64,000 bases of DNA from an archaeon (lineage in GTDB: Archaea; Micrarchaeota; Micrarchaeia; Anstonellales; Anstonellaceae): contig JAGVHI010000016.1 in the NCBI GenBank assembly GCA_020056635.1, positions 4,702-68,701 of the forward strand. The letters are read 5' to 3'. Shown here piece by piece: positions 1 to 28,004 of this stretch (position 1 is the stretch's first letter; each line of letters opens with the position of its first letter). A program made the position numbers and the translations under genes. The notes under the pieces were generated by a model. It ran no database searches. It was given only the letters and a program-made list of their open reading frames with translations, and was not told the origin of the DNA.

Positions 1-42
1 GCTTTCCGATACTCGGCGAATCCTCGGTTTCGGTACCCTGAT

Positions 43-52
43 TTTTAAATAT
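43..52 (+). promoter_or_regulatory. TATA-like box upstream of the ATPase operon
   Basis: TTTTTAAATA lies about 45 nt upstream of the ATG at 96. A purine-rich AAGGGG sits 6 nt before the ATG. Confidence 0.35.
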
Positions 53-95
53 TGATTGGCACAACCTAATCAGACGTTTCATTAAGGGGCAAATC

Positions 96-2147
96 ATGAA
101 AGTTCGCGAGATGGAGTTGTACTCCGAAAAGGTGAAGGAGGATGACATCCGAAACCTGCTTGGGCAGATAGTCAAATCCCGGCTTCCCCTATTCGGCTTC
201 CTGGACTTTTCCGACCTCTTCTCATTCAATTACGTGAACCTCATAATCACGCGCAAGAACAATACTGTAAAGTTCTTCGTGAAGGAGCGCAGGCATTTGC
301 ACAACCTATCCGCTCTGCTTTTCCCGTTCAAGCTCTCCGAGCCAACAGAAGTGCAGTACGCAAAAGCCCCAATCTCAATCCCCCCACGCTTCTACATACT
401 CGGGGGAAAGCACGATTTCCTTGATTTCATGCTTAAGGAAAACGTTCTTGAGCTGCACCTTCACCTCTCGCGCTTTTTGGGCGGCGATTTTTCAATCGGC
501 TCAGCCACTTACGAGAACGGGCGCAAGGGCGTAATAATAGTCCCCAACCCCTCCCGCTTCCTGGTTGTCGACCTTGAGAAGAACCCCTCAATATACATTG
601 AATTGCTCGAGCCAATCCCCAAGCGCATGTCCACCACCTCGCGCTTCCCGGCATTCGAGGAAACCGGAATGACTTTGGGCGTTGACAATTACGACCCTTT
701 CCAGCACTCGATGGTGGTGGGAGCATCCGGAACAGGGAAAAGCAAGGCGCTCTACATCATCCTTCGCGCCATGGAGGAGATGCACAAGGATGGCGTGCGC
801 ATGATAATACTCGACCCGCACGGCGAGTTCGCGCGCATGTACAAGCACCGCGCAAAAATCGTGAATTTCATCGATAATTACGTTGAGCCCCTTGACATGG
901 GCGGGAACAAGACCCCGCTTATGACCCAGCTTATCGCGCAACTTGTTTCAAGCACAATAGGGCAGGAGAACAAGTACTCGGAGCGCGTGCTGTTCTATGC
1001 AGTGCACCTGCTCACCTCAATTGAGAAGCTCGACCTTTCCAATATAGCGGCCCTGCTCACGGACTCTTCAGTCCGCGCTGAATTCGTCTCCTCATGCGAC
1101 AATGATGAAGTGAAGAGATTTTTTGATGAGGAGTTCAACGACATCTACATCCACCACTTCAATGACGCCATACTCCCTATTCTCAATTTCGTAGGGGAAT
1201 ACAAACTGTACTTGGGGAAGCAGATGAAGCAGGAGAGCCTGCTTTCGCTGCTTCGCACCAACCGCGTCACAGTGGTCTCATTCGACCCGCACTTTTTTGG
1301 AAAGCGCATGATTTCTTTCCTTGCAGGCGCAATCATAAACCAGATGTACATCCTTGCAATCACTGGCCAGATTCAGGACAAGCCAACTATACTTGCGATT
1401 GATGAGTTCTCCCGCGTGGAGACAAAGGTCACAAAGGACATATTGGTTGAAACGCGCAAATTCAACCTCTACCTTTACATGTCGGTCCAATACCTCAATC
1501 AGCTCTCAAAAGAGGTATACGATTCCATCATAGGGAACGTGCGCAACATAGTGGCATTCAAGCTCTCGCGCCAGGATGCCACTTCAATTTCCTCGATAAT
1601 GGAAATCAAGATTGAGGAGTTCTTCAAGAAGAGCCGCTCGCAAACAGAACTGGAAGAATCAAAGAAGGAGATGTTCGTCCGGCTTCACCAGCGCGAGTGC
1701 ATAGTCCGCTTCTTTGACGGGAAGAAATACATGCTGCCCATGAAAGTGCGGGCTGTGGATGCGAAGAAATGGGGCTGGAACGAGAGCATGGAGGTAAAGG
1801 AGTCCCGCGAGGTAACAGATTCGGAATCCCCCTTCCCGCCGCCTAAAGGGCCATCGCAAGGTGGAAGGGTTGTTCCAAGCGAGCAACCTCCATTGCAGCA
1901 AGCGGGGCGGGCCGAGCCAAATGAGCAACCTCCACCGCAGCAAGTGGCTCGTACTCCTGCGCAAGCTGCACAGCACCCGGGAGCCAGTTCGCACGCACCT
2001 GCAGCGCAAGAACCCCCTCCAACCAAGGTGCGCGTTTCTCCTCCAGCTTCGGGAGAGCAGGGCTCGCCATTCCACAGGCTCAAAGACGCGCACGAGGGCG
2101 GGCACTCAAGGCTGCCAAGCGCGCTAAGGAAGAAGAAGGATGAGTAA
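96..2147 (+). CDS. HerA/FtsK-type (DUF87-like) P-loop ATPase with an unknown ~200-aa N-terminal domain and a Pro/Gln-rich C-terminal tail
   Basis: 683-aa ORF. Walker A GASGTGKS (nt 720-743) is followed by ILDPHGEF. Walker B-like ILAIDEFSRV and ETRKFNLYLYMSVQ are present. The tail is low-complexity (SEQPPLQQ / NEQPPPQQ). Confidence 0.7.
   Translation: MKVREMELYSEKVKEDDIRNLLGQIVKSRLPLFGFLDFSDLFSFNYVNLIITRKNNTVKFFVKERRHLHNLSALLFPFKLSEPTEVQYAKAPISIPPRFYILGGKHDFLDFMLKENVLELHLHLSRFLGGDFSIGSATYENGRKGVIIVPNPSRFLVVDLEKNPSIYIELLEPIPKRMSTTSRFPAFEETGMTLGVDNYDPFQHSMVVGASGTGKSKALYIILRAMEEMHKDGVRMIILDPHGEFARMYKHRAKIVNFIDNYVEPLDMGGNKTPLMTQLIAQLVSSTIGQENKYSERVLFYAVHLLTSIEKLDLSNIAALLTDSSVRAEFVSSCDNDEVKRFFDEEFNDIYIHHFNDAILPILNFVGEYKLYLGKQMKQESLLSLLRTNRVTVVSFDPHFFGKRMISFLAGAIINQMYILAITGQIQDKPTILAIDEFSRVETKVTKDILVETRKFNLYLYMSVQYLNQLSKEVYDSIIGNVRNIVAFKLSRQDATSISSIMEIKIEEFFKKSRSQTELEESKKEMFVRLHQRECIVRFFDGKKYMLPMKVRAVDAKKWGWNESMEVKESREVTDSESPFPPPKGPSQGGRVVPSEQPPLQQAGRAEPNEQPPPQQVARTPAQAAQHPGASSHAPAAQEPPPTKVRVSPPASGEQGSPFHRLKDAHEGGHSRLPSALRKKKDE
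1881..1944 (+). repeat. Imperfect 22-nt direct repeat (period 42 nt) encoding the EQPPxQQ tail repeats
   Basis: gagcaacctccattgcagcaag (1881-1902) versus gagcaacctccaccgcagcaag (1923-1944), with 2 mismatches. Confidence 0.8.
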
Positions 2148-3720
2148 TAACATGCCTTCGCAGACATACGATTTGCTCAACCGCGCATGGAAATCGACTA
2201 GCAAAGTGATTTTCGGCGAACCGCTTGGCGAGTTGGCTGATTATGAGGAATGGCTCTCGCAGCTCCAGGGCAAAATGCGCGTTGAAACCTCCTCGATTTC
2301 CGGAAAGCCTGTCTATTTCGCGTTAAACGACTATTGCAAGGATGCGAAATTCCTAAGCTTTGACGAAGTAAAGCCCAGTGCAAAGTACGAGCCTCTCAAT
2401 ATCAACGAGATTAAGGACATCGATTCCATCCTGAATGGCTTGAGGGAGCAGTTCGAATACACAGGAAACCGCTTTCTTGGGAACAGCAATTTTGTCGAAT
2501 CATCCGACATAGTGCTCGATTCTCAGTTCATCTATAACTCCACGAACATTGAACAGTCCTCCTACATTTACTCCTCATACATGATGCGGAGGGGCAGCAA
2601 GCACGTTTTCGGCTCAGGCTGGACCGCAAATGGGGAATTCCTGCTTCGAGTTGTTGCAGGAATCGATATCCACCGGTGCTTTGAATCGCACTTCATAGGC
2701 GAATCAAGCGACCTTTTCTTCTGCTTCAACTGCAACGGATGCCACAACATGCTGTTCTCATTTGGCCAGAGGAACAAGGGCCATCTGATCGGCAACCTCG
2801 CATTACCGAAAGACAAATTTGCGGAACTCAAAGCAAAGCTATTGAGCGAGGCATTCACTCAGCTCAGAGCTGACAAGCGCTTTCCCTCCCTTTTTCAGCT
2901 TGTTCCCAACAAAACCCCAACTGCGCTTCCGAAATTGGCTGCTTCGAAATTGGAACATGGCGACATGCGGCCAATAGAAAAAGGCTTTTCCTCAACTTAT
3001 GAGGTAATGCTGAAACGAAAACCCATAAGCATAACCGCGCTTGAAAGCTGGCTTGGCAACCACACTGTCAGGCTTGCGGAAGCACGGACCCCATTTGGCG
3101 ACGAAACATATACCCCTCTCAATCACGGCATAATATCAGAAATGCCAAACAAGCGGCTTGTGACTATCGAGGAATCGTTCGAGCTTGGCAAAATAGCCCT
3201 TGATGAAACGTCAATTTCATCACTGGATAAAATAATTGGCGCACTTGATAAAATTGCATTCTTCAGCGCGGAATTCATAACAGGCGAGAACCATAACATA
3301 ATAAAATCGCCCCTCCTGCTCAGCAGCGCCAACATATACAAGGGATATGAAGCGACTTATTCCGAAAACACAGGTCTAACCTCCCTTTCCCTGCACTCGA
3401 AAAATGTTTATGGCTGCCACCGGATAATAGAATCCCAGTTCTGCCTCAAATGCTACAATTCCCTTTACCTGAACCGGTGCTTCGAGCTTGATGCCTGCCT
3501 AAAATGCGCAGACTCCTACTTCTGCCACAATTCCGAAGCATTGGGCGATTGCATGTTCTGCTTCAATGCAAAGGGAAAGAGGCACGCAATAGGAAACAAT
3601 GAGCTTGAGCTTGTAAAATACAAATCTGTAAAGGATTCTGTGCTTGAGCAAATAGCAGATGAGCTTGAGAAAAAGAAATCGCTCCACTACGACATTTTCA
3701 ACATAGGTGCCAAAGGCTAA
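2140..3720 (+). CDS. Cysteine-rich repeat protein A (unknown family; two copies of a ~240-aa module)
   Basis: 526-aa ORF whose start overlaps the ATPase stop by 8 nt. Motifs include CFESHFIGESSDLFFCFNCNGC...LFSFGQRNKGHLIGN and CLKCYNSLYLNRCFELDACLKCADSYFCHNSEALGDCMFCFNAKGKRHAIGN. It is a clear paralog of the next ORF. Confidence 0.75.
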   Translation: MSNNMPSQTYDLLNRAWKSTSKVIFGEPLGELADYEEWLSQLQGKMRVETSSISGKPVYFALNDYCKDAKFLSFDEVKPSAKYEPLNINEIKDIDSILNGLREQFEYTGNRFLGNSNFVESSDIVLDSQFIYNSTNIEQSSYIYSSYMMRRGSKHVFGSGWTANGEFLLRVVAGIDIHRCFESHFIGESSDLFFCFNCNGCHNMLFSFGQRNKGHLIGNLALPKDKFAELKAKLLSEAFTQLRADKRFPSLFQLVPNKTPTALPKLAASKLEHGDMRPIEKGFSSTYEVMLKRKPISITALESWLGNHTVRLAEARTPFGDETYTPLNHGIISEMPNKRLVTIEESFELGKIALDETSISSLDKIIGALDKIAFFSAEFITGENHNIIKSPLLLSSANIYKGYEATYSENTGLTSLSLHSKNVYGCHRIIESQFCLKCYNSLYLNRCFELDACLKCADSYFCHNSEALGDCMFCFNAKGKRHAIGNNELELVKYKSVKDSVLEQIADELEKKKSLHYDIFNIGAKG

Positions 3721-3723
3721 ACC

Positions 3724-5274
3724 ATGGACATAAACGGCGCGTTCAAACGCACTTTCAAGCTCATATTTGGGCAGTGCAACCTCGAGTTGGATGACCTCAA
3801 GGAATACCTTTTGAGCTACCAGCCCCCTTTTGTAATGAGGAAATCAAGCCTCTCAGGCAAGCAGGTCGCACTCTGCAACGGCAACTACCCGGCTTCTGCA
3901 AAATTCATCTCAGAAGATGAAATCGATTTCAATAAGAAATTTAACCCGCTTGGAATAAACGAAATAAAAGACATGGATTCGCTTGTTGCGGCTGCCCGAG
4001 AGCGGCTCTATTACGCAGGGAACAAGGTGCTTGGGAACTCCAATTTCGTGACAGAGTCTGACACCTGCTTCGACCTCTCATTTTCGAAATACGGGCACAA
4101 CAACATCTCCTCAAAATACATTGCCTATTCCTCCTACATCCGAAGCAATTCCTCCTTCATTTTCGGGGGCTGCTACATGGGCCGCTCAAGCCACGCAATC
4201 CACTCAAGCGCGTTCGTGGATTCCACGCGGTGCTTCGAATCCTACATGACCTACAACTCCTCTGACATGTTCGCCTGCTATAATTGCAGGGGCTGCACGC
4301 AGACAATGTTCTCATTCAACCTGCGGAACAAGAAATACTGCATAGGCAATCTCGAGCTTCCCAAGGAAAAATACCTTGCGATAAGGGAAAAGCTCGTCTC
4401 GGAAAGCAGGGAATACATAGAGAAAAACAGGAAATTCTACCCTGTTTTCAGCCTCAATCTGTGTGCGCCGCGGACTGGTGCCCTATCCATTCCAGCTCTC
4501 AAATCTGAAACCACAGACCCTGCCCCAATAGACTTGGCTTTCAAAAAAACCTGCAACATTCTTTTTGGGCACGAAATCGGCCCTCTGCAACAGTACGAAA
4601 AATTCCTCTCAAAGCGCATTGGTGAAATTGAGCGCCACAAATCGGTTTTCGGGAACGAAACCACTCTTCCCCCTATGTTTTTCTATGCTCATCTCCCAAG
4701 GGGCAGGCTGTTAAATGCGCAGGAGGCAGAGGTAGCAGGAAAAATAAGCATGGACGAAGAGAAACTAAATGGCCTTGGGACCCTGCTCCAAAACCTCGGG
4801 AAAATTGCGCTCTACCCATCCGAGCTAAGGCTTGGGGAAAACCGCAATCTCATCGAAACCCCATTTGCAATAGATGCAGTAAGCGCATACAAATGCCCGA
4901 ACATTTCCTACTCGAAGAACTGCGGCTGCTCTTTTGCGAACAACTGCGAGAGCGTTTTCGGCTGCTACCGCTCAGTCTATTCCACTTTCTGCATAAGGTG
5001 CTTCTTCGCAACAGGGCTTACCCGCTGCTCTGAGTGCGACGCGTGCGAGAAATGCTCGGACTGCTACTTCTGCCACAATTGCGAGAACCTTCAGGACTGC
5101 ATCCTTTGCTTCAATGCAAAAAACCTGCGCTATGCAATCGGGAACGCAGAGGTCGGAAAGGAGAAATACCTTGAATTCAAGGCAAGATTGCAGGGCTGGA
5201 GTGCCTTATCGCTTGAGCGGGAAAAAGACCTCAAGCACGATATTTTCAACATCGGAAGCAAACAGGCTCAGTAG
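3724..5274 (+). CDS. Cysteine-rich repeat protein B (paralog of 2140..3720)
   Basis: 516-aa ORF starting 3 nt after the previous stop, with the same two-module layout. It carries a seven-Cys C-x2-C ladder, CSECDACEKCSDCYFCHNC (nt 5026-5082). The C-terminus DIFNIGSK is shared with protein A (DIFNIGAK). Confidence 0.75.
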   Translation: MDINGAFKRTFKLIFGQCNLELDDLKEYLLSYQPPFVMRKSSLSGKQVALCNGNYPASAKFISEDEIDFNKKFNPLGINEIKDMDSLVAAARERLYYAGNKVLGNSNFVTESDTCFDLSFSKYGHNNISSKYIAYSSYIRSNSSFIFGGCYMGRSSHAIHSSAFVDSTRCFESYMTYNSSDMFACYNCRGCTQTMFSFNLRNKKYCIGNLELPKEKYLAIREKLVSESREYIEKNRKFYPVFSLNLCAPRTGALSIPALKSETTDPAPIDLAFKKTCNILFGHEIGPLQQYEKFLSKRIGEIERHKSVFGNETTLPPMFFYAHLPRGRLLNAQEAEVAGKISMDEEKLNGLGTLLQNLGKIALYPSELRLGENRNLIETPFAIDAVSAYKCPNISYSKNCGCSFANNCESVFGCYRSVYSTFCIRCFFATGLTRCSECDACEKCSDCYFCHNCENLQDCILCFNAKNLRYAIGNAEVGKEKYLEFKARLQGWSALSLEREKDLKHDIFNIGSKQAQ

Positions 5275-6218
5275 AACGGCACTTCATACCTTACAGAGGA
5301 ATAGACAATCGCTTCCTCGCCGATTTTCTTCTCGCCAATCCTAATCATCGCACCTTTTGGCGAGGGTTCGAAATAAGCTGAAAGTATCGCATGGTTGTCC
5401 GGCAGCTTCCTAATCCTGGAAGAAATCGAGTTGTTCCCGAGCATCCCTATAAGCGCGTATTTTGTCGCATCCGTGAACTCGATTGCCATTTTCCGCTTGC
5501 TAGTCACGCTCTGCAATGTAACATGCTTTCTGTCTATGCTCATCCACCCGGCCTTCTCCCCTTTCATGAACTCGAATATCCTGCTTCTCCTCTCCTCGAC
5601 TGAGTGCCTTATCCTCTCAAGCGTGTGCCTCTCCGAAACAGTCGCAGCGCGCCTTTTCACATTCAGTATGTGCCCTTTTGCAAATTCAATCCTGCCTTTC
5701 ATGCCGCTCTTGTGCTTTCCGGACTCAAGCATCATGCTATGCTCGAACTCAAGCATGTTCTTCTCCGCATTTTCCGCATCCCTCTCGAAAATTGAGAATT
5801 TCCCAAGCAAATCGACAACATTCTCCCCCTGCCCAGATGCCTCATGTATTTCGGAAAGCCTGCTCTCAAGCTTCCCAAAAAGCCTCTTTAGCGCCTCAAG
5901 CCGAGAAGCGTATTTTTCGTGGTTCGAGAGTATCACAGTATCCTCGACCACCTGCTCCATCTCCTGCAAGTCGGTCGTGAGCTTGTCCGCAAGCACCACT
6001 GCCTCATTTAGCTCAAGCTCGGAATCGGACTGCATCCTGGAGAGCGATTCGCACCTGCCGCACGCCTCCTCAAGCCTCTCGCGCATCGACTCAAGCCTCT
6101 CCTCGTGCTCAAGCGATGCCACAAGCCTGTCCAGTATGCGCTCAGCTTTCGAATTGAGGGTCTGCAGCCTAAGTTGGCATTTCTTCAAGGAGTAGTCTTT
6201 CTGCCTTGCAGGTCGCAT
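5268..6218 (-). CDS. Coiled-coil protein, function unknown
   Basis: 316-aa ORF. The N-terminal ~200 aa are Glu/Leu/Arg-rich and heptad-like (LEHEERLESMRERLEEA, LQEMEQVVEDT). The C-terminal ~90 aa look globular. Its 3' end overlaps the convergent gene by 7 nt. Confidence 0.55.
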   Translation of the reverse strand: MRPARQKDYSLKKCQLRLQTLNSKAERILDRLVASLEHEERLESMRERLEEACGRCESLSRMQSDSELELNEAVVLADKLTTDLQEMEQVVEDTVILSNHEKYASRLEALKRLFGKLESRLSEIHEASGQGENVVDLLGKFSIFERDAENAEKNMLEFEHSMMLESGKHKSGMKGRIEFAKGHILNVKRRAATVSERHTLERIRHSVEERRSRIFEFMKGEKAGWMSIDRKHVTLQSVTSKRKMAIEFTDATKYALIGMLGNNSISSRIRKLPDNHAILSAYFEPSPKGAMIRIGEKKIGEEAIVYSSVRYEVPFY

Positions 6219-6910: not shown

Positions 6911-9733
6911 CTATTCTACAAATGCGAAGTAATTCTGGCGCGCTGTAGTCAGGAGTTCCTGGTTCGCAGAGCAGAATTGCTGGCTTAAGCACGGGAAAGG
7001 CAGGAACGCATCATTCTCCTGCGATAATGGCCCGACAAAATTGCCCCCTCCATACTTCAGGTATTCGTTCACAAGCAAAAAGAACTCCCGGATATTTTTG
7101 CGCGCAGCCCCCTGCCTTGCCTTCTCCTGTTCCGAATCGGCAGCGCCTGGCAGCCCATACTCGGCAAACATTGATTCGAAAAGTTTCGCATCCGAGGTAA
7201 TCTGGCCAAGCGCCATGCCATTTACGCTTGCATCAAGCATCCCAATTGACATGCAAAGCTCCCTGCAGAACTCGGCGGTCTTCGGGCCCAGCTGCCCATC
7301 TATCCTAAAGCCGGAACCTGAAATCCTTTCCAAATCCATGCTCACATAAGGGCTTTGCGAAAGCATGCAGAGGTTCTGCTGGAAAACTGCGGCCTGGGTG
7401 CGTGAAATCCCCTTATTATAGGAAAATACCGCGGTAAACGACACATCCTCAGGTGACGGTATTCGAACTGGCGAGCCGGATTCCGCCTCCACCCTTGTCC
7501 TGTCCACCACGCTTCTCAAATCCAGCGAAAAGCGCAGGTATGCAAAGTAAAGCTGCATCCGGTCGCTTGAGAGAATGTCCCCAACAACCTTCTCGCGCTT
7601 TTTTTGCGCATCCAATGCCGGGTTCCAATTTTCAATCACATTCCTTACTCCCTTTTCCTTGCCTGTGGCAGACAGGAGCTGTGCAAGCTCCACCTCAGCC
7701 TCCACGCGCTTTGCTGCAGGAAGCGCGTTCCTGTTTGCAAGGTGATCCAAATATTCAATGGTCTGCCTTACGCCCACTTGGAATATCCCGATGCTGTTTG
7801 GCAGCTTTTTCCCATGCCCTGCACGCTCCGAAACGTCATCCGCAATATTGTCTACCCACCTGTCCGGAAGCAGGCTGTATGCAATATTGTATAGGACATC
7901 CAGCCCGACCCGCTTTCCCAGCGACGAATAATATTCGTTGAACAGGACGGTTTTTAGCGCCCCTGTGATTGGGGCAGGTATCCCCATCTCCTTTGCATAG
8001 CGCGAAATGTCCTCTGCTTTCGATTCGAACCTGCTTGTGGCCCACCACCTCGAAATCGACATCCTGCCTGCGGTGCTTTGGGGCGTTTTTGCAGGGTTTC
8101 CCTCCAGATTGAATGTTATGTCCGGCACAATCCCTGGGAAAGTCGGCACCCGGAGCGTGACTATGAAATCTATCGAGCGGTGGGCGACCGCCTGCTTGAA
8201 ATTGAAATTCTTGGCCATGTTCTGCCTTGCCACTTCCGGAAAAATGGCCTCGAACGGCATGTTGAGCTTGCCTGACAGCCTGCGCGCAAAATCAACAGGC
8301 GAGAGCGAAAGCCTCTCGGGCAGCGCCCCCGCATCATCCTGCTCTGTGTACGCATCCCGGACCACGAATGTTTGGTTCACTGCAGGCGCAAACCTCTCAA
8401 AGCGCGGCACAAAAAGCCTGCTGTCCTCCTGTATTGTGAACTGGCCCAGCACCAATTTCTCCTTTCCATACCCTTTGAAAAATTTCTGCAGCTCAAGCAT
8501 GTTTGAAAAGTCGAATTCACGGTACCTCATCCCAAAAACATCCGCGTATTTCCCATCCCCGAGGCAGACCATCGCGTGCGTTATCCCTCTTTCAATTCCC
8601 GTCCCGGTCCTCTCGTTCCGCACGGTCAGTATGGAACCCCTTGGGGCAGGCAAGAGCTGAGCGCGCAGGGCTTTCCAGGCTGCGGCATTTGCTATTGTCC
8701 CGTCCCAGTTTGTTTCTGCCCAAATCCGCTGCTGCTCGAACATCGGCTCGCGCAGCACAGCAATGTAGCCTGGGGAGGGCGGCTGTGCATCCATCTGTTC
8801 ATACGGCCTCCCAAAATGATGGTAAACGTTTGTCGAAAGCCCTTTTTCCGCAAGCATGGCATAGAACATCGCCATCACGCCAGATGAGCACCATGCAGCC
8901 TCGTTCCTGCGCTCCGCCCTCCTCACCTTTGCATCCTCCTCGTAAAAATGTGTCATCACTCCAACCGAATCTGCAAATGGCTGGCTTGAAGGAGACTCAA
9001 AGAACCTCCTTCTCACCTGTATCTGGAGCGGCGGGCGGGCAATGTTCAGCTCCGCATATCCTTCCGGCGGCTTGGTGCGAAGGATCTTCTCCCTATCCAT
9101 AGCCTCGAGCCGTGAGCGCGTGGCGCCTATTTCATGTGCAAGCGCTTCAAGCGACGGGTACTCATTCTGAGTGTTGTAATCATATACTGAGCCCACTCCG
9201 CTTCCGCCGTCCCCAATAAGCCGCACCACCCTGCTTCCAGTCCCTTTTTTTGTGCTGTAAACAAGAACCCTGTTGCCATCATCCCAAAACTCATCATCAG
9301 TCCCAAAGAACTTGGTTTTTTTCGGGCTTGGGAGTGCAAATAGCTTTGGGGCAATCGAACGCCCTGCGCTTCCACCTCCCCCATGCCACGCAACCCCTGC
9401 ATCTGCCCGCTGCACAGGCTGCCTAACTTTTGCAGGCACGTACTCCTCAAGCTTTGCAAGTGCCAGCCTGCCCTCCTTTCCCGGGATATATTTTGCACCA
9501 AGCCTTGCCAGAAGTGCATCCACTGAGGAAAAAACGAATTTTTCGCTTCCCGCCTCTTTGAGGTTGAAATCAAGCACGGTGCCATCGCCATTAACCCTTA
9601 TGATGTGCCTGCCTTCCCTGCCCTTAAACGAGTACCTAAGCACATGGAGCGCTTCGTCCCCCCCCATTATTTCAGCCTGGAGTTCGTTGGGTATGTACAG
9701 CGCTTTTTTGCCCTGGGCGGCTTCCTGTGCCAA
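6911..9733 (-). CDS. Large multidomain protein: tandem N-terminal ~75-aa repeats, NlpC/P60-like Cys/His peptidase motifs, SLT-like lytic transglycosylase motifs and a PG-binding-like motif
   Basis: 940-aa ORF. Motifs are WCSSGV (Cys282, nt 8888-8890), THAMVCLGDGKYADV (His386), LFNEYYS, SIGIFQVG, FSYNKG and IDGQLGPKT. It is a paralog of 11291..14512. A GAGGTGGTG SD-like element lies upstream. Confidence 0.75.
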   Translation of the reverse strand: MAQEAAQGKKALYIPNELQAEIMGGDEALHVLRYSFKGREGRHIIRVNGDGTVLDFNLKEAGSEKFVFSSVDALLARLGAKYIPGKEGRLALAKLEEYVPAKVRQPVQRADAGVAWHGGGGSAGRSIAPKLFALPSPKKTKFFGTDDEFWDDGNRVLVYSTKKGTGSRVVRLIGDGGSGVGSVYDYNTQNEYPSLEALAHEIGATRSRLEAMDREKILRTKPPEGYAELNIARPPLQIQVRRRFFESPSSQPFADSVGVMTHFYEEDAKVRRAERRNEAAWCSSGVMAMFYAMLAEKGLSTNVYHHFGRPYEQMDAQPPSPGYIAVLREPMFEQQRIWAETNWDGTIANAAAWKALRAQLLPAPRGSILTVRNERTGTGIERGITHAMVCLGDGKYADVFGMRYREFDFSNMLELQKFFKGYGKEKLVLGQFTIQEDSRLFVPRFERFAPAVNQTFVVRDAYTEQDDAGALPERLSLSPVDFARRLSGKLNMPFEAIFPEVARQNMAKNFNFKQAVAHRSIDFIVTLRVPTFPGIVPDITFNLEGNPAKTPQSTAGRMSISRWWATSRFESKAEDISRYAKEMGIPAPITGALKTVLFNEYYSSLGKRVGLDVLYNIAYSLLPDRWVDNIADDVSERAGHGKKLPNSIGIFQVGVRQTIEYLDHLANRNALPAAKRVEAEVELAQLLSATGKEKGVRNVIENWNPALDAQKKREKVVGDILSSDRMQLYFAYLRFSLDLRSVVDRTRVEAESGSPVRIPSPEDVSFTAVFSYNKGISRTQAAVFQQNLCMLSQSPYVSMDLERISGSGFRIDGQLGPKTAEFCRELCMSIGMLDASVNGMALGQITSDAKLFESMFAEYGLPGAADSEQEKARQGAARKNIREFFLLVNEYLKYGGGNFVGPLSQENDAFLPFPCLSQQFCSANQELLTTARQNYFAFVE
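7379..8011 (-). other. SLT (family 1 lytic transglycosylase)-like region of the 940-aa protein
   Basis: NEYYS (candidate E-S motif), GIFQ (compare GLMQ) and SYNKG (compare AYNxG) occur in the canonical order. Confidence 0.55.
8504..8926 (-). other. NlpC/P60 (papain-fold)-like region of the 940-aa protein
   Basis: Cys in the W-C-S-S-G context and His in the H-A-M-V-x-L-G-D-G-K context are about 100 aa apart. This matches the order and spacing of NlpC/P60/CHAP catalytic residues. Confidence 0.55.
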
Positions 9734-9776: not shown

Positions 9777-11204
9777 CTAACCTTTCACCACTCCAATCGG
9801 GACCAGTTTCGCAACCATATCGGAAATGCCAGCAGCCTGCACAGACGCCACAACCATGTTCACATCCTTGTAAGCGCCTGGCGCCTCTTCCGCAATCAAA
9901 TCGTACTCCGTCGCCTTGATTATGATTCCTTTTGCGAGCAGTTCCTCCTGCACCTGCTTGCCGGTCCAGGAATGCACTGCCTTGCTCCTGCTCATTGTCC
10001 TGCCGCTCCCGTGGCAGGATGAGCCAAACGATTGCTTCATCGCCCCTTCCTTCCCAACCATCACGTAGGATGCGGTCCCCATGCTCCCGGGAATCATCAC
10101 AGGCTGCCCAATCGCCCTATAAATATCAGGAACCTCCTTTCTCCCGGCCGCAAACGCGCGTGTAGCCCCCTTCCTGTGCACACACACTTTCTTCATTTTC
10201 CCCTCGACCTCATGCTCCTCGAATTTTGCAATATTGTGGCACACATCGTACAGCATTTCCATCCTGTCGCCCGTGCCATTCCCGAAAACAGAGTCAAACG
10301 TTTCCCTTACCCAGTGCGCCATTATGTGCCTGTTGCAGAACGCATAATTCACCGCGCACCGCATCCCCTTCAAATACCGCTCCGCTTCCGGCGAATTGAT
10401 TGGCGCGCAGCACAATTCCCTATCCGCAAGATTGATTTTGTATTTTGATGCTGTCCCAATCATCGAGCGCAAACTGTCATCGCAAACCTGGTGCCCGAAT
10501 CCCCTTGACCCGCAGTGAATCATCACGGTCACTTCACCCTGCTCAAGCCCGAACGCCTTTGCCACTTCCGGGCTCTGGATTTCGCTAATCTCCTGAATCT
10601 CAAGGAAATGGTTCCCTGCCCCCAATGTCCCGAACTGCGGCGCGCCCCTCTTTTTCGCGGTATCGCTCACAACCAGAGGGTCCGCCCCATCTATTCTCCC
10701 GCCTTCCTCGCACCGCTTCCTGTCCTCCTCCCAGCCCCACCCTTTTGAGAGCGCCCATTCCACACCTTCAGTGGTTGCCTTCTCAAGCTCCTGTGGCGAG
10801 AGCCTCACCCTCCCCTTGCTCCCTACCCCAGATGGCACATTATCGAACAATTTGTTCACAAGCTCGCGCAGCTTCGGCCTTACGTCCTCTGCTTTCATTC
10901 CAGTTTTGAGCAATCTCACTCCGCAATTGATATCGTACCCTACTCCCCCAGGTGACACTACTCCTTCCTCCAAATCAAAAGCAGCCACCCCCCCAATCGG
11001 GAACCCATACCCCTCGTGGCAATCCGGCATCACCATTGCGTAATTGATAATTCCAGGAAGGGTTGCAACGTTGCGCAGCTGATTAAAGCTCCTATCCTTG
11101 CCCATCTGCTCGAAAAGCTCTTTTGTGGCAAACACGCGCGCAGGCACTCGCATTTCCCCTTCCTTTTCCAATTCCCAAACAGCATCCGCAATCTGCTTGA
11201 CCAT
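9777..11204 (-). CDS. rtcB: RNA-splicing ligase RtcB
   Basis: 475-aa ORF with RtcB hallmarks: PDCHEGYGFPIGGV, GYDINCGVR, GAGNHFLE, HCGSRGFGH, AVNYAFCNRH and SSCHGSGR. The length shows no intein. Confidence 0.95.
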   Translation of the reverse strand: MVKQIADAVWELEKEGEMRVPARVFATKELFEQMGKDRSFNQLRNVATLPGIINYAMVMPDCHEGYGFPIGGVAAFDLEEGVVSPGGVGYDINCGVRLLKTGMKAEDVRPKLRELVNKLFDNVPSGVGSKGRVRLSPQELEKATTEGVEWALSKGWGWEEDRKRCEEGGRIDGADPLVVSDTAKKRGAPQFGTLGAGNHFLEIQEISEIQSPEVAKAFGLEQGEVTVMIHCGSRGFGHQVCDDSLRSMIGTASKYKINLADRELCCAPINSPEAERYLKGMRCAVNYAFCNRHIMAHWVRETFDSVFGNGTGDRMEMLYDVCHNIAKFEEHEVEGKMKKVCVHRKGATRAFAAGRKEVPDIYRAIGQPVMIPGSMGTASYVMVGKEGAMKQSFGSSCHGSGRTMSRSKAVHSWTGKQVQEELLAKGIIIKATEYDLIAEEAPGAYKDVNMVVASVQAAGISDMVAKLVPIGVVKG

Positions 11205-11290: not shown

Positions 11291-14200
11291 CTACTGCAGC
11301 GGCTCGAGGTTGCTTGAGTACCTCACCAGCATGAAATAGTTCTGCCTTGCGGGCGTGAGTATTTCCGGGTGCGCATTGAGGAACAGGAAATCAAGGCACG
11401 ACCTGGGCTTAAATGGCGTAAACTCATTGAGCGCTTGCGCAGTTGGCGGCGCAGGGGGGCCGTGCACATCTGGCTGGGGCTCATACAGCCTTGAGACGGC
11501 CAGAACGCGCAAATACGCGTTCGCCTGGTCGAAAAACGCCCTGCCTTCGGCATCCACCAGTTTTTGCGCAGACGCAAGCGTGGGCTTTTTTTCCTCGCGT
11601 TGAGGGTCGTTTTTCATCCTCCCTTCCCAGTATCGTATTTCTTGCGTTAGCCGCTCGTTCGGGTCAAAAAGGTACTTGAACAGCGAGAGGTTCATGTCAT
11701 AAACACTATACTCTGTTCCATTCGCAGTCGTGAACTTAGCCATCCCCAGGTGCAGGCATACGTCCTTGAAAAGCGAGAAAGTCTTTTCCCCCAAATCGCC
11801 GTCAAGCTCGAACCCCCTTGCCGCCGCCCCCATATCCATCCGCAGCCGCTCGTCGCACGCAAGCGCGTACATGTTCTGCTGCAACACGGAATTGAAAGTT
11901 TTTTGAATGCCCTTATTGTACGCAAATGCTGCTGTGAATGATATGTCCTCCGCAGTCGGGATCTCATATACTCCATCTGCGCTTCTCATCGCGCTCCTGA
12001 CCCTCTCGCGCACATCATGCCTGTCCCTTTCATAGTGCCTGTAAGCAAAAAACAGCTGCATCCTGTCATCGTTTATGAAAGCATCGATTGCAATGTTCCT
12101 CTTCTCCTGGTATGCTGCATTCTTGTCCCAGGAGTATATCACGGCCTTGAGGTGCGCATCGCTCCCAGCCGCTTTTACCAGCGCCTCCTTCTCCTTATCC
12201 CCCATATTATCCAAATAGCGTATCACCCCAGTCATGCTTATCTGGAAAATCCCAAGCGTGTCGGGCAGCTTCCCATCATCCAGTTTCCGCGCGCCCCATT
12301 CAATCCATTTAGTTGGCACGATGTCCGAATCATGCGCCACAACATAGCCCAGGTCTTGTACGGTCCTTTTCCCAAATCCGGAATAATACTCATTATACAA
12401 TATGCCAAACAGCGACGGGAGCGCGCCAGAAGGGATGCCCATCTCCTTTGCAAGCCCCTCGAGCCTGTCCACCTTCGGCCTGAAAAACTTTTCCCAAAAA
12501 TTGTCCGCCGCGTTCCTGATTTTCCACCAGGTCTTAACCGCCACATCTGCGCTGCTGGCAGGGTCGCCCAAACCTGCCTTCGCAACCTCTCCCGCCTCAA
12601 TTTCTATGTGTGCATGCCTTCGTGCGAGCTCCCCATCATCGAACGCCAGGCTTGGGACCGGGCCCGAATAAGTCGGAACTTTCAGAGTCACCTGCAAATC
12701 CCGCGTTTTCTTCCAGCTCGCATCAGCCCAATCGAAGCCCTCTGGCAGGTTCTGCCTCACAACCTCCGGGAATACTGCCTCGAACGGCATGCGCAGCTTC
12801 TCCACTAGAGCCTGCGAAAAAGTGACGGGCGTCATCTTCCTCCCTGGCGCTACATCCTCTATTGTGAACGTCTCTTCCTTTGCTTCAGAGAATTTGTCCC
12901 ACCTAGGCACGTAAAAGAATGCATCCTTCGGAAGGTAGAAAAGGCTGCCTTTTCCGTCAATCTGCCCTTTGAAGAATTTTTTCACTTCCTTGATGCTTGA
13001 GAAATCAAACTCCCTGTACTCTATTCCGAACACATCCGCAAATTTCCCGTCCCCCAAGCTTATCATCGCATGCGATACTCCTTCAGCCCCGGAGCGGGTG
13101 TATGAGTACCTCACAGTGAGTATTGTGCCGCGCTTAGCGCCCTCAAGCTGCTTTCTTAAGCCCTCCCAATTCTCCTCAGTGAATTGCCCATCCTTGCCCT
13201 TGTCAACAACCTGCCCCCACGCATCCCGTTGTGCTTGAATTGGCACGTGAAAGAACATCTCCTCATTCAGGTTCTGCGCATAGCCCTCGACGGTTTTCCC
13301 ATCATCAGCAAGCTTCCTGTATGGCCTTCCAAAATTGTGGAACACATCTGTCGCAAGCCCTCTTTCAGCAACTATTCCGTAAAAAACGGCCATAACGCCC
13401 GAAGAGCACCAATAGCCCTGGTCCCTGCGCTCCATTGCCCGCGCCTTCTGGTCTTCAGTGTAATACCTCTTCATCGCAGCCAATCCGTCCTTCACGGGGT
13501 TCTTTGACGGCGGGATGACTGTGCGCATCTGCGGCCCTATAAATTCAGGCTTCGGTTTCGGAACCTCCTTGGGCTTTGGAACTTCAGGCAGCCCTTTTTT
13601 TCTTCTTTCATACTCCTCAGGCGACCAAGGGCCGACGTAGCCTTTCTCACCTGGCAGCACTGGCGGCTTTGGCAGCTTGCCTTCAGAGTAGGAAATCTTC
13701 TTCCCATCAAGCGGTTCAAGCCTCCCTTCTGCCGCCCCGATCCATTTTTTCAGCTCATCCACTGAGCCGAAATTCTTCTTCAAATTATAATCCCAAACAT
13801 CGCTTACCTTCCCTTTTTCGTCCTTGATAACCATCACTATCCTGCTTCCATCCCCATTCCTGGTCCGGTATACCAACACCTGGTTGTTCTTATCTTCTGT
13901 ATCCAAATCCCCTTCTTCGCCATAAAACCAGGTTTTTGCAGGTGATAAAAGCGGCTTTGGTGCTGGTGCCTGGGCTATACTCCCGCCAGATTGGCTCGAG
14001 CGCGTAGCCGGGCTGCTCCCATCCCCGCGGGTTGCAGGCGCCCTATCTGCTCTTCCGCCCTGTTGGCCTGGAGTTGGTGCAATTGCTTCCCCGTTCCTTG
14101 CAGGTACGAATCGGTTGAGGCTTACAAGCGCCCTCTCCTCCCGCCGCTCGGACACCACCCCGCCCTGCTCCTCCTTCACGTATGCCGCCCCAAGGTGCTT

Positions 14201-14512
14201 TCTCAACTCTTCAACCGACTTGAACTTGTATTTTTTGCTGCCTCCCCCCTGCGCGCGCAGGTTGTAGTCAACAATGGTGCCATCCTGCTCGATTTTCACC
14301 ACTCGCCTGCCCTTCCTACCTGAAAACTCGTATTCGAAGACCTTGAAGTTGCCCTCACCCTGCAGCACTTCCCTTTTGAACTCAGCCGGGATGAATAGGC
14401 GCCTGCCCCGCGCGCTTGCTTCGGTCAATTTTCCACCGGATAAATTGGGCTTTTCTCTCTTTATTAAGCTTCTCGAATCCCCTAAGTTAAGCTTATATCC
14501 CATCATTCCCAA
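11291..14512 (-). CDS. Large multidomain protein, paralog of 6911..9733 (N-terminal repeats, NlpC/P60-like, SLT-like and PG-binding-like motifs)
   Basis: 1073-aa ORF. Motifs are WCSSGV (Cys369, nt 13406-13408), SHAMISLGDGKFADV (His481), LYNEYYS, LGIFQIS, FAYNKG and LDGDLGEKT. The C-terminal ARQNYF motif is shared with the 940-aa paralog. Confidence 0.75.
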   Translation of the reverse strand: MGMMGYKLNLGDSRSLIKREKPNLSGGKLTEASARGRRLFIPAEFKREVLQGEGNFKVFEYEFSGRKGRRVVKIEQDGTIVDYNLRAQGGGSKKYKFKSVEELRKHLGAAYVKEEQGGVVSERREERALVSLNRFVPARNGEAIAPTPGQQGGRADRAPATRGDGSSPATRSSQSGGSIAQAPAPKPLLSPAKTWFYGEEGDLDTEDKNNQVLVYRTRNGDGSRIVMVIKDEKGKVSDVWDYNLKKNFGSVDELKKWIGAAEGRLEPLDGKKISYSEGKLPKPPVLPGEKGYVGPWSPEEYERRKKGLPEVPKPKEVPKPKPEFIGPQMRTVIPPSKNPVKDGLAAMKRYYTEDQKARAMERRDQGYWCSSGVMAVFYGIVAERGLATDVFHNFGRPYRKLADDGKTVEGYAQNLNEEMFFHVPIQAQRDAWGQVVDKGKDGQFTEENWEGLRKQLEGAKRGTILTVRYSYTRSGAEGVSHAMISLGDGKFADVFGIEYREFDFSSIKEVKKFFKGQIDGKGSLFYLPKDAFFYVPRWDKFSEAKEETFTIEDVAPGRKMTPVTFSQALVEKLRMPFEAVFPEVVRQNLPEGFDWADASWKKTRDLQVTLKVPTYSGPVPSLAFDDGELARRHAHIEIEAGEVAKAGLGDPASSADVAVKTWWKIRNAADNFWEKFFRPKVDRLEGLAKEMGIPSGALPSLFGILYNEYYSGFGKRTVQDLGYVVAHDSDIVPTKWIEWGARKLDDGKLPDTLGIFQISMTGVIRYLDNMGDKEKEALVKAAGSDAHLKAVIYSWDKNAAYQEKRNIAIDAFINDDRMQLFFAYRHYERDRHDVRERVRSAMRSADGVYEIPTAEDISFTAAFAYNKGIQKTFNSVLQQNMYALACDERLRMDMGAAARGFELDGDLGEKTFSLFKDVCLHLGMAKFTTANGTEYSVYDMNLSLFKYLFDPNERLTQEIRYWEGRMKNDPQREEKKPTLASAQKLVDAEGRAFFDQANAYLRVLAVSRLYEPQPDVHGPPAPPTAQALNEFTPFKPRSCLDFLFLNAHPEILTPARQNYFMLVRYSSNLEPLQ
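11888..12460 (-). other. SLT-like region of the 1073-aa protein
   Basis: NEYYS, GIFQ and AYNKG motifs in order. Confidence 0.55.
12998..13450 (-). other. NlpC/P60-like region of the 1073-aa protein
   Basis: Same Cys/His motif pair as the paralog. Confidence 0.55.
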
Positions 14513-16814: not shown

Positions 16815-17774
16815 TTATATCTCAGCATAGTGCATGTCGCTCCTGTTTTCGGAAAGCACGGCGCCCTGAAGCGCGAACCCCGATATTTCGGCTTTGCTCT
16901 TTGGCACTATGCTCTTGGAGCCGTCTTTTTTCACCACGAGCACCCCGTTCCACGGGCATTGTTTGCATCCGGGCACAAGGCTTATGCCTATCCTGCTTGT
17001 GTCGAATTGGACGTGGATGGACAGCCTCAGGGCATCCGGATACGCGTTTGTTATCAATTCCGAATGTGCGCTTGTTCTTGCGATAGATGAAAGGGTCAGC
17101 CTGTGCAAGGTCTGCTCCCCCTGTGCCAAATCCATAATATCGAGAATCGGCTGGAAATAGCCCCCTATCGTTCTTTTCAACCCATCGTACTGCGAACGCG
17201 TGCGGCAGTTCATCCTGATTGTTGGAATCCTCACGTCCTCTTCTTTGCGCAGGAACTCGGCAGCCCCTACGGTTATATTCACACGTTCCATCAATGCTTC
17301 AATTGGCACTCTCCGAAGCTTTTCAGCCATGCCCGGGATTTGTGCATCCATCTCTAAAATTATTTCATAAACGCCCCTTTCGAACCGCGCAACCGCGGCT
17401 TCCTCCAAGCCGAACGTGTTTCCGTTGTGGCTGACTTGGAACAAATCGAAAAAAACTCGGCTATCGGTCATTATGTGGACTTCGACGTTTTCCTCTACCA
17501 GAATTGCAAGGTTCCGCAGGCTTTCTGCTTCAGCCATGTCAGCGCGTTTGCAGTCTATCACCCTGTCCGGGTTTGGAGATTTGAACGGAAATGCGGGCAA
17601 CACGTAAGTTATTTTGCCGCCATGCGCAAGCTGCCGTTCCATGTTCACCCTAAGCGCCTCGAACTGTTTCTGCCTATGCGTCTGGTCGAAAGACCGCATA
17701 AGGGGCGATATTTTTTCGACCTGGCGCGTGATTAATGCTGCATTGCTCATTGACCCACCTATTATCATATACAT
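16815..17774 (-). CDS. PvcA/IsnA/Dit1-family protein (putative isonitrile synthase)
   Basis: 319-aa ORF. Motifs are VLPAFPFKSPN, ADMAEAESLRNL, IMTDSRVFFDL, ALRLSIHVQ, RIGISL and CPWNGVLVVKKDG, all in the order expected for PF05141-type proteins. The true start may be the internal Met at 17750. Confidence 0.65.
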   Translation of the reverse strand: MYMIIGGSMSNAALITRQVEKISPLMRSFDQTHRQKQFEALRVNMERQLAHGGKITYVLPAFPFKSPNPDRVIDCKRADMAEAESLRNLAILVEENVEVHIMTDSRVFFDLFQVSHNGNTFGLEEAAVARFERGVYEIILEMDAQIPGMAEKLRRVPIEALMERVNITVGAAEFLRKEEDVRIPTIRMNCRTRSQYDGLKRTIGGYFQPILDIMDLAQGEQTLHRLTLSSIARTSAHSELITNAYPDALRLSIHVQFDTSRIGISLVPGCKQCPWNGVLVVKKDGSKSIVPKSKAEISGFALQGAVLSENRSDMHYAEI

Positions 17775-26899: not shown

Positions 26900-26909
26900 C
26901 CTCCGATTA

Positions 26910-28004
26910 TTATTTTACAAGTGTCATCTTTTTTGTTCGTGATATTCCATCAGCTTCGAATCTGTACAAATAAGTCCCGCTCGGAAGCCCGTCTGTTTTG
27001 AAAACTGTGCTATATCTCCCGGCAGTCTTCGTCCCATCCACGAGCGTTGCAACCCGCCTTCCAGTCACATCATAAACGCGAATCTTGACAAAGGCGCGCT
27101 TTGGAATCTCGTATTCAATAGTGGTCGTAGAATTGAACGGGTTCGGGTAATTCTGCTTAAGCTCTATTCCCGAAGGCAGCGCAAATGGGATCCTCCCAAC
27201 CGGCAGCCTTGCGGTCAATTCATTTGCCTGCAGCGTATCATGCACAAGAGTGCTCCAAGAGTATCTCCAAGGCTGCACACCCACTGCTTCCAATGCCGCC
27301 GAATCAATCAGGGAAAACGCCCAAGTGTTCCTGACTGCAACCAGCTCGCTCCCATTTGTGAATACTGCGTTCACTGGCATTCCCGCAATTGTCGTATCGA
27401 GGTTCACTGGCGGAAACCCGCTGGATGCCATGATTGAAATGAAATTCTCAAAGTTCCCGCACGGCGAAGGCATTGCCCAGCGCTGGCACGTGCTGTCCGC
27501 AATCCTCGCAGCCTCTGCCGAATCGCCAAGCGCTTCATCGAAAACTATGAATACGCCATAGCCCCTTGCAAGACCCACCCTTCTCTCCGCATCAGTGAAC
27601 GGTCCATCTTTCATTATCGCTTTGAGCGTGTCCCCGCACGTAGGATTATCTGGGTTATTGCCAGGCCATATCACCGCGCGCGCCATGAACGAAGGGTCAG
27701 GCCACACCCCATCAATCTCAACATGCTGGTAAACCCATATTGTGTCCTGGCCGTGCTCAAGGGCATAAATGGTCTGCTGCACATGCTGCTCCGAAGCAAA
27801 TGCAGAATGCAACTTGTCCACGAGCGGAACCAGCAGCATAAATGCCCCACCCGCAGCAAGCTTTCCAATGCCGCGCAATCCAGGCCCGTTCCTGAAGAAT
27901 TCGGAAATCCTACCTGGCATTTTCCTTTCAAATGCCCTTGCTTGCGCTGGCGCATTCGGGTTCTGGAAACTGTACGTTATCCTTTCCGAACTCATGTCCC
28001 TCAT
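26910..28004 (-). CDS. Membrane-anchored/secreted protein ending in a T9SS type-A (Por) C-terminal sorting-domain-like / FlgD-Ig-like module
   Basis: 364 aa with an N-terminal hydrophobic anchor, KLAAGGAFMLLVPLV. The last 84 aa are ELKQNYPNPFNSTTTIEYEIPKRAFVKIRVYDVTGRRVATLV...GTYLYRFEADGISRTKKMTLVK, ending exactly at the stop codon. The start overlaps the upstream stop by 4 nt. Confidence 0.8.
   Translation of the reverse strand: MRDMSSERITYSFQNPNAPAQARAFERKMPGRISEFFRNGPGLRGIGKLAAGGAFMLLVPLVDKLHSAFASEQHVQQTIYALEHGQDTIWVYQHVEIDGVWPDPSFMARAVIWPGNNPDNPTCGDTLKAIMKDGPFTDAERRVGLARGYGVFIVFDEALGDSAEAARIADSTCQRWAMPSPCGNFENFISIMASSGFPPVNLDTTIAGMPVNAVFTNGSELVAVRNTWAFSLIDSAALEAVGVQPWRYSWSTLVHDTLQANELTARLPVGRIPFALPSGIELKQNYPNPFNSTTTIEYEIPKRAFVKIRVYDVTGRRVATLVDGTKTAGRYSTVFKTDGLPSGTYLYRFEADGISRTKKMTLVK
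26913..27164 (-). other. T9SS-CTD-like terminal domain
   Basis: QNYPNPFN...VYD..GR.V..L.......G.Y...F......SG.Y.YR.......KKM.L.K pattern at the extreme C-terminus. Confidence 0.7.

Follow-up and report, generated by a model that had tools for sequence, protein, structure and literature searches.

Organization of the locus

A 64,000-nt stretch of DNA from an archaeon of the Anstonellaceae, phylum Micrarchaeota, was analyzed (contig JAGVHI010000016.1 of assembly GCA_020056635.1, positions 4,702 to 68,701 of the forward strand; hereafter, the window). At its left end are three closely packed genes that encode an ATPase and two paralogous proteins, A and B. A preliminary description, made from the sequence alone, had read them as a translationally coupled operon of a HerA/FtsK-type ATPase and two cysteine-ladder proteins. 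Our analysis indicates that the locus is almost certainly the compact, co-directional version of a module found throughout the Micrarchaeota, which consists of a single-copy ATPase and a variable set of two-unit beta-solenoid proteins. The Micrarchaeota are reduced-genome DPANN symbionts, and their cell biology has been deduced almost wholly from annotation. In this module, which has no assigned function, a highly conserved single-copy ATPase is combined with up to 14 family gene blocks.

According to the listing of open reading frames (ORFs), the ATPase has 683 amino acids (aa) and is encoded at 96-2147 (+). Protein A has 526 aa (2140-3720, +), belongs to subfamily F2 of the solenoid family, and is divided into an N-unit (aa 1-262) and a C-unit (aa 268-526). 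Its paralogue, protein B, has 516 aa (3724-5274, +) and belongs to subfamily F4. The packing described earlier, three + strand ORFs with an 8-nt overlap and a 3-nt gap, was confirmed in the sequence with a caveat about the start of protein A. At the junction between the ATPase and protein A, ATGAGTAA, the latter gene starts at 2140 and the former ends with the stop at 2145-2147, so that 8 nt are shared. The junction between A and B is TAA-ACC-ATG, which leaves the 3-nt gap. The true start of protein A may be the ATG at 2152 (Met5), since the orthologue in the closest relative, locus L081, whose ATPase is 85% identical, begins with MPSQTYD 4 nt past the ATPase stop. With the start at 2152, the 8-nt overlap becomes a 4-nt gap and the packing is still tight. 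All three ORFs are real genes rather than chance ORFs because they have hundreds of homologues, with E values down to 0.

Upstream of the ATPase, a TATA-like AT-rich element, TTTTTAAATATT, at 42-53 (+) is a putative archaeal promoter, and GGGG at 86-89 (+) is a possible Shine-Dalgarno sequence before the ATG at 96; both were read from the sequence. The preliminary description had allowed for an operon that extends further left. This is probably not the case, since the gene upstream of the ATPase in L081 encodes ribosomal protein L15e on the opposite strand. The operon therefore probably starts at the ATPase, as judged from the closest relative rather than from the window's own upstream sequence. 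The gene order in L081 is L15e (-), ATPase (+), one family gene (+), a 316-aa gene (-) and RtcB. With one family gene in L081, the second family gene of the window was either gained or retained in its own lineage.

The ATPase is a soluble HerA-clade protein without a characterized orthologue

The ATPase is a soluble member of the HerA/VirB4/VirD4(TrwB) clade of the FtsK-HerA P-loop superfamily. It is not an orthologue of any characterized superfamily member and represents a new orthologous group. The earlier assignment to the HerA/FtsK superfamily was borne out by both Pfam and Foldseek. DUF87 scored 40.4 bits against a gathering threshold of 23.2, and TrwB_AAD_bind, at 30.4 bits, was also above its cutoff. 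Pfam coverage was confined to the P-loop stretch at aa 203-262 (DUF87, aa 203-258). The scores from NCBIfam were far under the cutoffs: 30.5 of 600 bits for CedD, the best model, 19.8 of 970 for HerA (NF040819) and 20 of 521 for TraD. PADLOC returned mad8 (E 1.7e-12) and several HerA models. An AlphaFold2 model built with 28 homologues had a mean predicted local distance difference test (pLDDT) score of 76.8, and its core (aa 1-565) was mostly confident. When this model was compared with the PDB using Foldseek, near-equal matches were found (E 1e-11 to 1e-9, probability 1.00) to archaeal HerA (4d2i, 1e-11), VirB4, TrwB, DndH-C, TdpA and the HerAs bound to Sir2 and DUF4297. It is because these matches are near-equal that the protein is placed in the clade without a characterized orthologue.

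The motifs GASGTGKS, ILDPHGEF and IDEFSRV, which had been listed before, were all found in the translation. Walker A (GASGTGKS, aa 209-216) lies at 720-743 (+) and Walker B (TILAIDE, aa 431-437) at 1386-1406 (+). GASGTGKS and ILAIDE are invariant across the ATPase homologues (G209, S211, G212, G214 and K215 in the former; D436 and E437 in the latter). The N-terminal alpha/beta domain (aa 1-200; 96-695, +) had been called unrecognizable, and it had no sequence family match in Pfam or NCBIfam. It is nevertheless conserved in 28 of the 28 aligned homologues, with a pLDDT of about 60-90, and the alignment and model suggest that it is specific to this orthologous group. The Pro/Gln-rich tail, which had been described as disordered, covers aa 570-683 (1803-2144, +) and has a pLDDT below 50, consistent with disorder, and a polybasic end. 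Tail length varies from 0 to 354 aa among the homologues. The median number of Lys and Arg in the last 25 residues is 9, and the polybasic end is present in 87% of the homologues whose tails have 25 or more residues. No transmembrane segment was found in the ATPase; the maximum 19-residue hydropathy is 1.68 and falls inside the core. The median pI of the core among the homologues is 8.3. The homologues are 46-85% identical, and a single locus was recovered per species-level genome (78 distinct loci).

Proteins A and B define a family with a candidate new fold

Proteins A and B share 39% identity across their whole length (E 2e-121) and align end to end with 119 homologues. Protein A has 14 Cys residues and protein B has 27. 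A word-indexed search placed the family in at least 442 clusters (90% identity), and no Pfam domain was present in any of them. In an exhaustive profile search, E<=1e-3 was reached by 1727 clusters (50% identity), and 329 of them were below 1e-30; among the matches listed (the best 150 of the 1727 clusters), all are close family members. The taxonomic reach of the family was judged from named homologues. For all three proteins, these were almost all from Candidatus Micrarchaeota, Micrarchaeia, Anstonellales or Bilamarchaeaceae, and a few loci bear the submitter label 'Iainarchaeum sp.' This is apparently a new, phylum-restricted protein family.

Neither A nor B had a match in Pfam, NCBIfam or PADLOC. 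A lenient Pfam scan of 24 family members produced only scattered single-member noise. With a 121-sequence family profile, no PDB sequence matched at an E value below 0.03. The AlphaFold2 model of A has a pLDDT of 87.3 and a predicted template modeling score of 0.88, and a Foldseek search with it found no match better than E 1 in the PDB or BFVD. The earlier view that the partners are paralogues of no recognized family was borne out by library, profile and Foldseek searches; the hidden Markov model library searches, run on all three proteins, found no well-characterized family for the Cys-rich ones. Going by the model, the family is a candidate new fold. Its members have no signal peptide and no transmembrane segment, and their pI is near neutral.

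The profiles of the N-half and C-half matched each other with hhalign at a probability of 100% (E 2e-47), and these proteins are tandem duplications of a unit of about 255 aa. In the model of A, each unit combines a helical or alpha/beta head with a run of strands, each 3-4 residues long, and a long helix at the C-terminus. The two-unit family is defined by the motifs INEIKDIDS, FSFGQRNK...IGN and FCHN.E...FCFN.KG.R..IGN, and both window proteins carry them. The Ser/Cys columns of the strand run follow a strict 6-residue period (autocorrelation of 0.55-0.58 at lag 6), which identifies the run as a hexad-periodic beta-solenoid. The 'cysteine ladder' of the preliminary description is not restricted to Cys, as most ladder columns swap Cys for Ser, Ala or Gly.

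The cysteines also raise the possibility that the partners are primarily metal-binding proteins with a zinc ribbon or an Fe-S center. C438, C447, C456 and C474 of the C-unit are 98-100% conserved within close subfamilies, H463 is invariant there, and one NCBI annotation reads 'zinc ribbon domain-containing protein'. Family-wide, however, about 10-30% of the units have Ala, Ser, Thr or Val at the columns of C438, C447 and C456. Across all subfamilies, C474 is the only nearly invariant ladder Cys, and H463 is nearly invariant as well. The equivalent columns of the N-unit are mostly Ser, Leu or Val, the Cys/Ser columns obey the solenoid period, and zinc-ribbon Pfam models matched single members only, with E >0.03. 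A primarily metal-binding role is therefore quite improbable. Judging from these sequences, the 'cysteine ladder' seems to be mostly a core-packing stack of Cys, Ser and Ala with no obligate metal site, and a metal or catalytic site around C474 and H463 is possible. The invariant polar residues are K92, D93, D95, S96, R179, D191 and N219 in the N-unit and E449, H463, N464, E466, N476, K478 and N486 in the C-unit.

Beta-solenoids with ladders of small residues include the insect antifreeze protein TmAFP, with 12-residue coils, the hexapeptide left-handed beta-helix proteins and the bactofilins. The family resembles them in its short 3-4-residue strands every 6 or 12 residues and in the Ser, Cys or Ala at every sixth position. 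It differs in having no Pfam repeat match at E<=1 and no Foldseek match in the PDB or BFVD, and in carrying its own alpha/beta head and long C-terminal helix. A canonical Hexapep beta-helix was considered and rejected. None of the 24 members had a Hexapep match at E<=1, and the register is S-x-x-[IV]-x-x, with 3/3 spacing, rather than [LIV]-[GAED]-x2-[STAV]-x, with the canonical i/i+4 spacing.

A tblastn search of the family against 50,697 phage records gave no match, nor did any relative turn up when IMG/VR was scanned with the family alignment. The sole signal outside the family was phrog_15341, a viral family of unassigned function, which matched 10 of the 24 members weakly but recurrently (best E 2.9e-5). 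The match spans only the Cys-rich solenoid stretch, which in protein B is aa 386-465 (window 4879-5118).

In most loci, the family stays beside the ATPase while its surroundings change

A genome collection was scanned with the ATPase alignment, which yielded 78 loci. In these loci, family genes were located with tblastn, and other neighbors were grouped by ORF clustering. Adding the window and L081 gave a set of 80 loci. Family genes were found within 61 of the 78 loci and in 41 of the 46 that have at least 5 kb on both flanks. In 53 of the 80 loci, a family gene is the immediate neighbor of the ATPase, and many of the loci without a directly flanking family gene end at contig edges. The syntenic homologues that a gene-neighborhood check would look for therefore exist in other genomes.

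The arrangement varies, and several loci are counted under more than one type. The family gene is co-directional and downstream of the ATPase, as in the window, in 13 loci, with gaps of -10 to +80 nt. It is convergent, with abutting or overlapping 3' ends, in 31 loci (30 of them at -27 to +42 nt) and lies directly upstream of the ATPase in 15 (-8 to +222 nt). Where a family gene flanks the ATPase on the downstream side, the gap is between -27 and +80 nt. The claim of a translationally coupled operon thus fits the window and does not hold generally. What is conserved is the gene neighborhood, not co-transcription.

Direct flanking persists down to about 46-50% ATPase identity while all the other neighbors change. 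The commonest non-family neighbor, the HTH_10 regulator of the arrays, reaches 27 loci at most. The only other neighbor clusters in more than 8 loci are a pyridoxal phosphate (PLP)-dependent enzyme (18 loci) and a tandem Lrp/AsnC-type protein (14 loci). Tight linkage to the ATPase is firmly shown to be far better conserved than the surrounding synteny. Proximity has been kept while orientation and side vary, which argues for selection on linkage. Tight co-directional coupling involves six subfamilies (F2, F4, F5, F8, F16 and the n-type), suggesting several independent rearrangements.

The same data bear on whether the two components are linked in function at all. The ATPase could be a housekeeping DNA translocase that serves in repair, segregation or the uptake of DNA, the solenoid proteins could be something unrelated, such as regulated enzymes, and their adjacency could be an inherited accident. 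This explanation would account for the excess of convergent over co-directional loci, for ATPase loci without family genes, for the many family genes with no ATPase nearby and for those that often have their own adjacent regulators. It is harder to reconcile with direct flanking in 53 of 80 loci down to such low ATPase identity amid changing neighbors, with a proximity that outlasts repeated changes of orientation and side, or with six subfamilies in tight co-directional coupling. We consider an accident of inheritance unlikely.

Two observations were made on the recurrent neighbors. The PLP-dependent enzyme (PALP, threonine-synthase-like; for example, L067 11947-13419, -) has a C-terminal transmembrane segment and an extra domain. 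The tandem Lrp/AsnC-type neighbor was considered as a siroheme decarboxylase, which was rejected since LrpA outscored AhbA/AhbB and all of these scores were far below the cutoffs.

Arrays, split genes and solitary copies

The two partners described for the window are not the general number. Elsewhere, there are arrays of up to 14 gene blocks per locus, within a 20-kb locus, and many of the genes are split into half-size pairs. Among 245 family genes, 131 were full-length and 98 were half-size (45 N-type and 53 C-type), and in nearly all arrays the n gene precedes the c gene along the direction of transcription. These n and c pairs are natural fissions of the fused protein, which implies that the two units work together.

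The median identity between paralogues within a locus is 37%, while the median of the best identity between genomes is 65%. By these sequence comparisons, the paralogues appear to be ancient and maintained, each with close orthologues in other genomes. F2, the subfamily of protein A, is the second largest and is present as one copy in each of 21 loci. Many family genes adjoin their own HTH_10-type or tandem Lrp/AsnC-type regulator. As a reverse test, metagenomes were scanned with the family alignment. Multi-gene arrays with complete flanks usually include the ATPase, and single genes never do.

Near family genes, there are also two 378-aa proteins from different genomes (L002 5985-7121 and L082 11675-12811), each within about 1 kb of a solenoid-family gene. 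They have no NCBIfam match, and one has a faint radical-SAM match on record.

Proposed working of the module and its relation to known systems

The recurrence of the pairing across the Micrarchaeota points to an uncharacterized cellular machine. Our tentative proposal, which we hold to be possible rather than probable, is that the solenoid pseudo-dimers dock on a hexameric ATPase as dedicated, interchangeable partners. The ATPase would presumably be a soluble hexamer, with the lineage-specific N-terminal domains forming a docking ring. Each solenoid protein, as a fused pseudo-dimer or an n + c heterodimer, would dock on this ring, much as NurA dimers, Sir2 and DUF4297 do on HerA hexamers. The motor would drive the translocation of a polymer, most likely a nucleic acid. 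Three features of the ATPase favor nucleic acid as the substrate: its clade, a core that is basic (pI about 8.3) and the polybasic tail. The ancient paralogues would act as interchangeable modules that differ in specificity or activity, and the functional site would be formed by the conserved polar residues rather than the Cys ladder.

The docking model is favored because known soluble HerA-clade ATPases form complexes with adjacent soluble partners. To our knowledge, every characterized soluble HerA-clade ATPase that is encoded beside a soluble partner complexes with it (NurA, Sir2, DUF4297 and TdpB). Several points weigh against the proposal. The nucleic-acid substrate is purely inferred. 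No effector domain, such as a nuclease or an NADase, was detected in the partners with Pfam, NCBIfam, PADLOC or the lenient Pfam scan. In most loci, the ATPase and the family genes converge and are thus not co-transcribed. Of the 46 ATPase loci with at least 5 kb on both flanks, five lack a family gene within 10 kb, only 6 of the 14 fully flanked metagenome family loci contain the ATPase, and the two solitary family copies examined sit far from it among housekeeping genes. Our confidence in a complex is held down by the convergent orientation, the dispersed solitary copies and the lack of a recognizable effector domain. The idea that the family always travels with the ATPase stands as linkage in most loci and fails as a strict rule.

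The HerA-NurA system, which carries out DNA end resection in archaea, is similar in that the genes for a soluble ATPase of the HerA clade and for a soluble partner are neighbors; there, the NurA dimer acts atop the hexamer. The best Foldseek matches of the ATPase include S. solfataricus HerA (4d2i) and T. kodakarensis HerA-NurA (9x1m). It differs in that the present ATPase falls far below the HerA equivalog cutoff, as given above, and its N-terminal domain is unrelated by sequence. The partners have no NurA domain and form a multi-paralogue family. No nurA, mre11 or rad50 gene adjoins the ATPase in the window or among the neighbor clusters shared by the 80 loci. A solitary NurA gene without an adjacent HerA was seen in the Micrarchaeota relative L083 (4549-5601), which leads one to ask with which HerA-clade ATPase NurA is paired in the Micrarchaeota.

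Bacterial HerA-effector systems (Sir2-HerA/Nezha, DUF4297-HerA, TdpAB, DndFGH and MADS mad8) share the ATPase fold and the plan of one motor with an adjacent partner. The locus could then be an anti-virus defense island, with the solenoid paralogues as sensors or effectors like those of Sir2-HerA, DUF4297-HerA, TdpAB or MADS. The PADLOC matches of the ATPase to mad8 and HerA models and its structural similarity to defense HerA complexes agree with this, and arrays of paralogues are common in defense loci. Unlike patchy defense genes, however, the ATPase is vertically conserved, at 50-85% identity, and single-copy in all 78 recovered genome loci. The partners have no PADLOC match and no nuclease, Sir2 or other recognizable effector domain, and no mobile-element hallmarks were seen nearby. 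The paralogues are ancient and conserved as orthologues, and arrays of this kind are not a feature of the bacterial systems. A defense role is very unlikely.

The type IV secretion ATPase VirB4, the coupling protein TrwB (VirD4) and the archaeal Ced ATPases (CedB and CedD) resemble the ATPase in their RecA-like core with a helical insertion, in the TrwB_AAD_bind match above cutoff, in Foldseek TMt values of 0.5-0.65 to VirB4 and TrwB and in CedD being its best NCBIfam match. These systems differ in that CedD has a transmembrane domain (PMC11868833). The ATPase lacks a transmembrane anchor and scores far below the CedD cutoff, and no VirB6/CedA-type channel or pilin is conserved near the ATPase loci.

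Such motors suggest a different role for the solenoid proteins, as cargo or building blocks. The ATPase would be an assembly or export motor, comparable to VirB4/VirD4 of type IV secretion systems (T4SS) or EccC of type VII. The solenoid proteins would be its substrates, either factors that an episymbiotic DPANN archaeon secretes to interact with its host or subunits of a large structure inside the cell or on its surface. The likeness of the ATPase to VirB4 and the TrwB coupling protein in fold and Pfam matches fits this idea. The multi-gene arrays and obligate n/c pairs recall Esx and PE/PPE, which are paired secretion substrates, and beta-solenoids commonly polymerize. ARMAN cells hold an unexplained cytoplasmic tubular structure (PMC6098224), which could be of this kind. 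On the other side, signal peptides and transmembrane segments are absent from both the ATPase and the family, and the neighborhood has no conserved gene for a membrane channel, a pilin or another secretion component. The paralogues are ancient and conserved rather than fast-evolving, and solitary copies occur among housekeeping genes. The cargo role is, in our judgment, rather doubtful.

A bolder form of the proposal is that the ATPase and solenoid arrays form a Micrarchaeota-specific, ATP-driven machine with a new fold and no HerA, T4SS or defense counterpart, which we regard as improbable though worth stating. Such a machine might be an intracellular or host-contact heteromeric assembly of paralogous pseudo-dimers that is remodeled by the motor, and it might match structures like the ARMAN cytoplasmic tubular organelle (PMC6098224).

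The preliminary description had suggested that the combination of the ATPase with two solenoid-like proteins was undescribed, and full-text literature searching found no description of the pairing. Micrarchaeota genomics papers and a review of archaeal 'dark matter' make no mention of the ATPase or the solenoid family. A 2026 preprint on 'cysteine-rich repeats' was set aside because it concerns a different repeat and mentions Micrarchaeota in passing. The partner family and the architecture, with one motor, an array of ancient fused or split paralogues and dedicated regulators, appear to be undescribed. If the solenoid proteins do form a complex with the ATPase, this would be a new class of HerA-clade partner beyond nucleases, NADases and secretion channels, and it would provide a handle on lineage-specific biology in a phylum dominated by uncultured members. 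The natural fused and split forms of the solenoid proteins hint at which surfaces interact.

Other features of the window

The rest of the window is archaeal chromosome, with genes for RtcB, LonB, an RPA-like OB protein and A-type ATP synthase subunits. No tRNA or Rfam match was found in it. A provirus with a packaging ATPase was rejected as an explanation of the locus since nothing viral matched and core chromosomal genes surround it.

A Glu/Leu/Ser-rich 316-aa protein (5268-6218, -) converges on protein B, and the 3' ends of the two genes overlap by 7 nt. It has no family match; a gene of the same length is at the same position in L081, and no other locus has a homologue. RtcB (9777-11204, -) is an intein-free protein of 475 aa, while the RtcB of L081 (7181-10024) has 947 aa and contains Intein_splicing. 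It is flanked by two large paralogues (6911-9733, -, 940 aa; 11291-14512, -, 1073 aa), which are 34% identical and have no Pfam domain. Further along, 16815-17774 (-) encodes a DIT1_PvcA protein (isocyanide synthase/dityrosine biosynthesis-like), here in a reduced DPANN genome. The region at 21548-34084 (-) encodes two giant subtilase (S8) proteins with FG-GAP repeats, of 1783 and 2027 aa. Between them is a 364-aa protein with a Por_Secre_tail domain, a C-terminal sorting domain of the type IX secretion system type, which is unusual in an archaeon.

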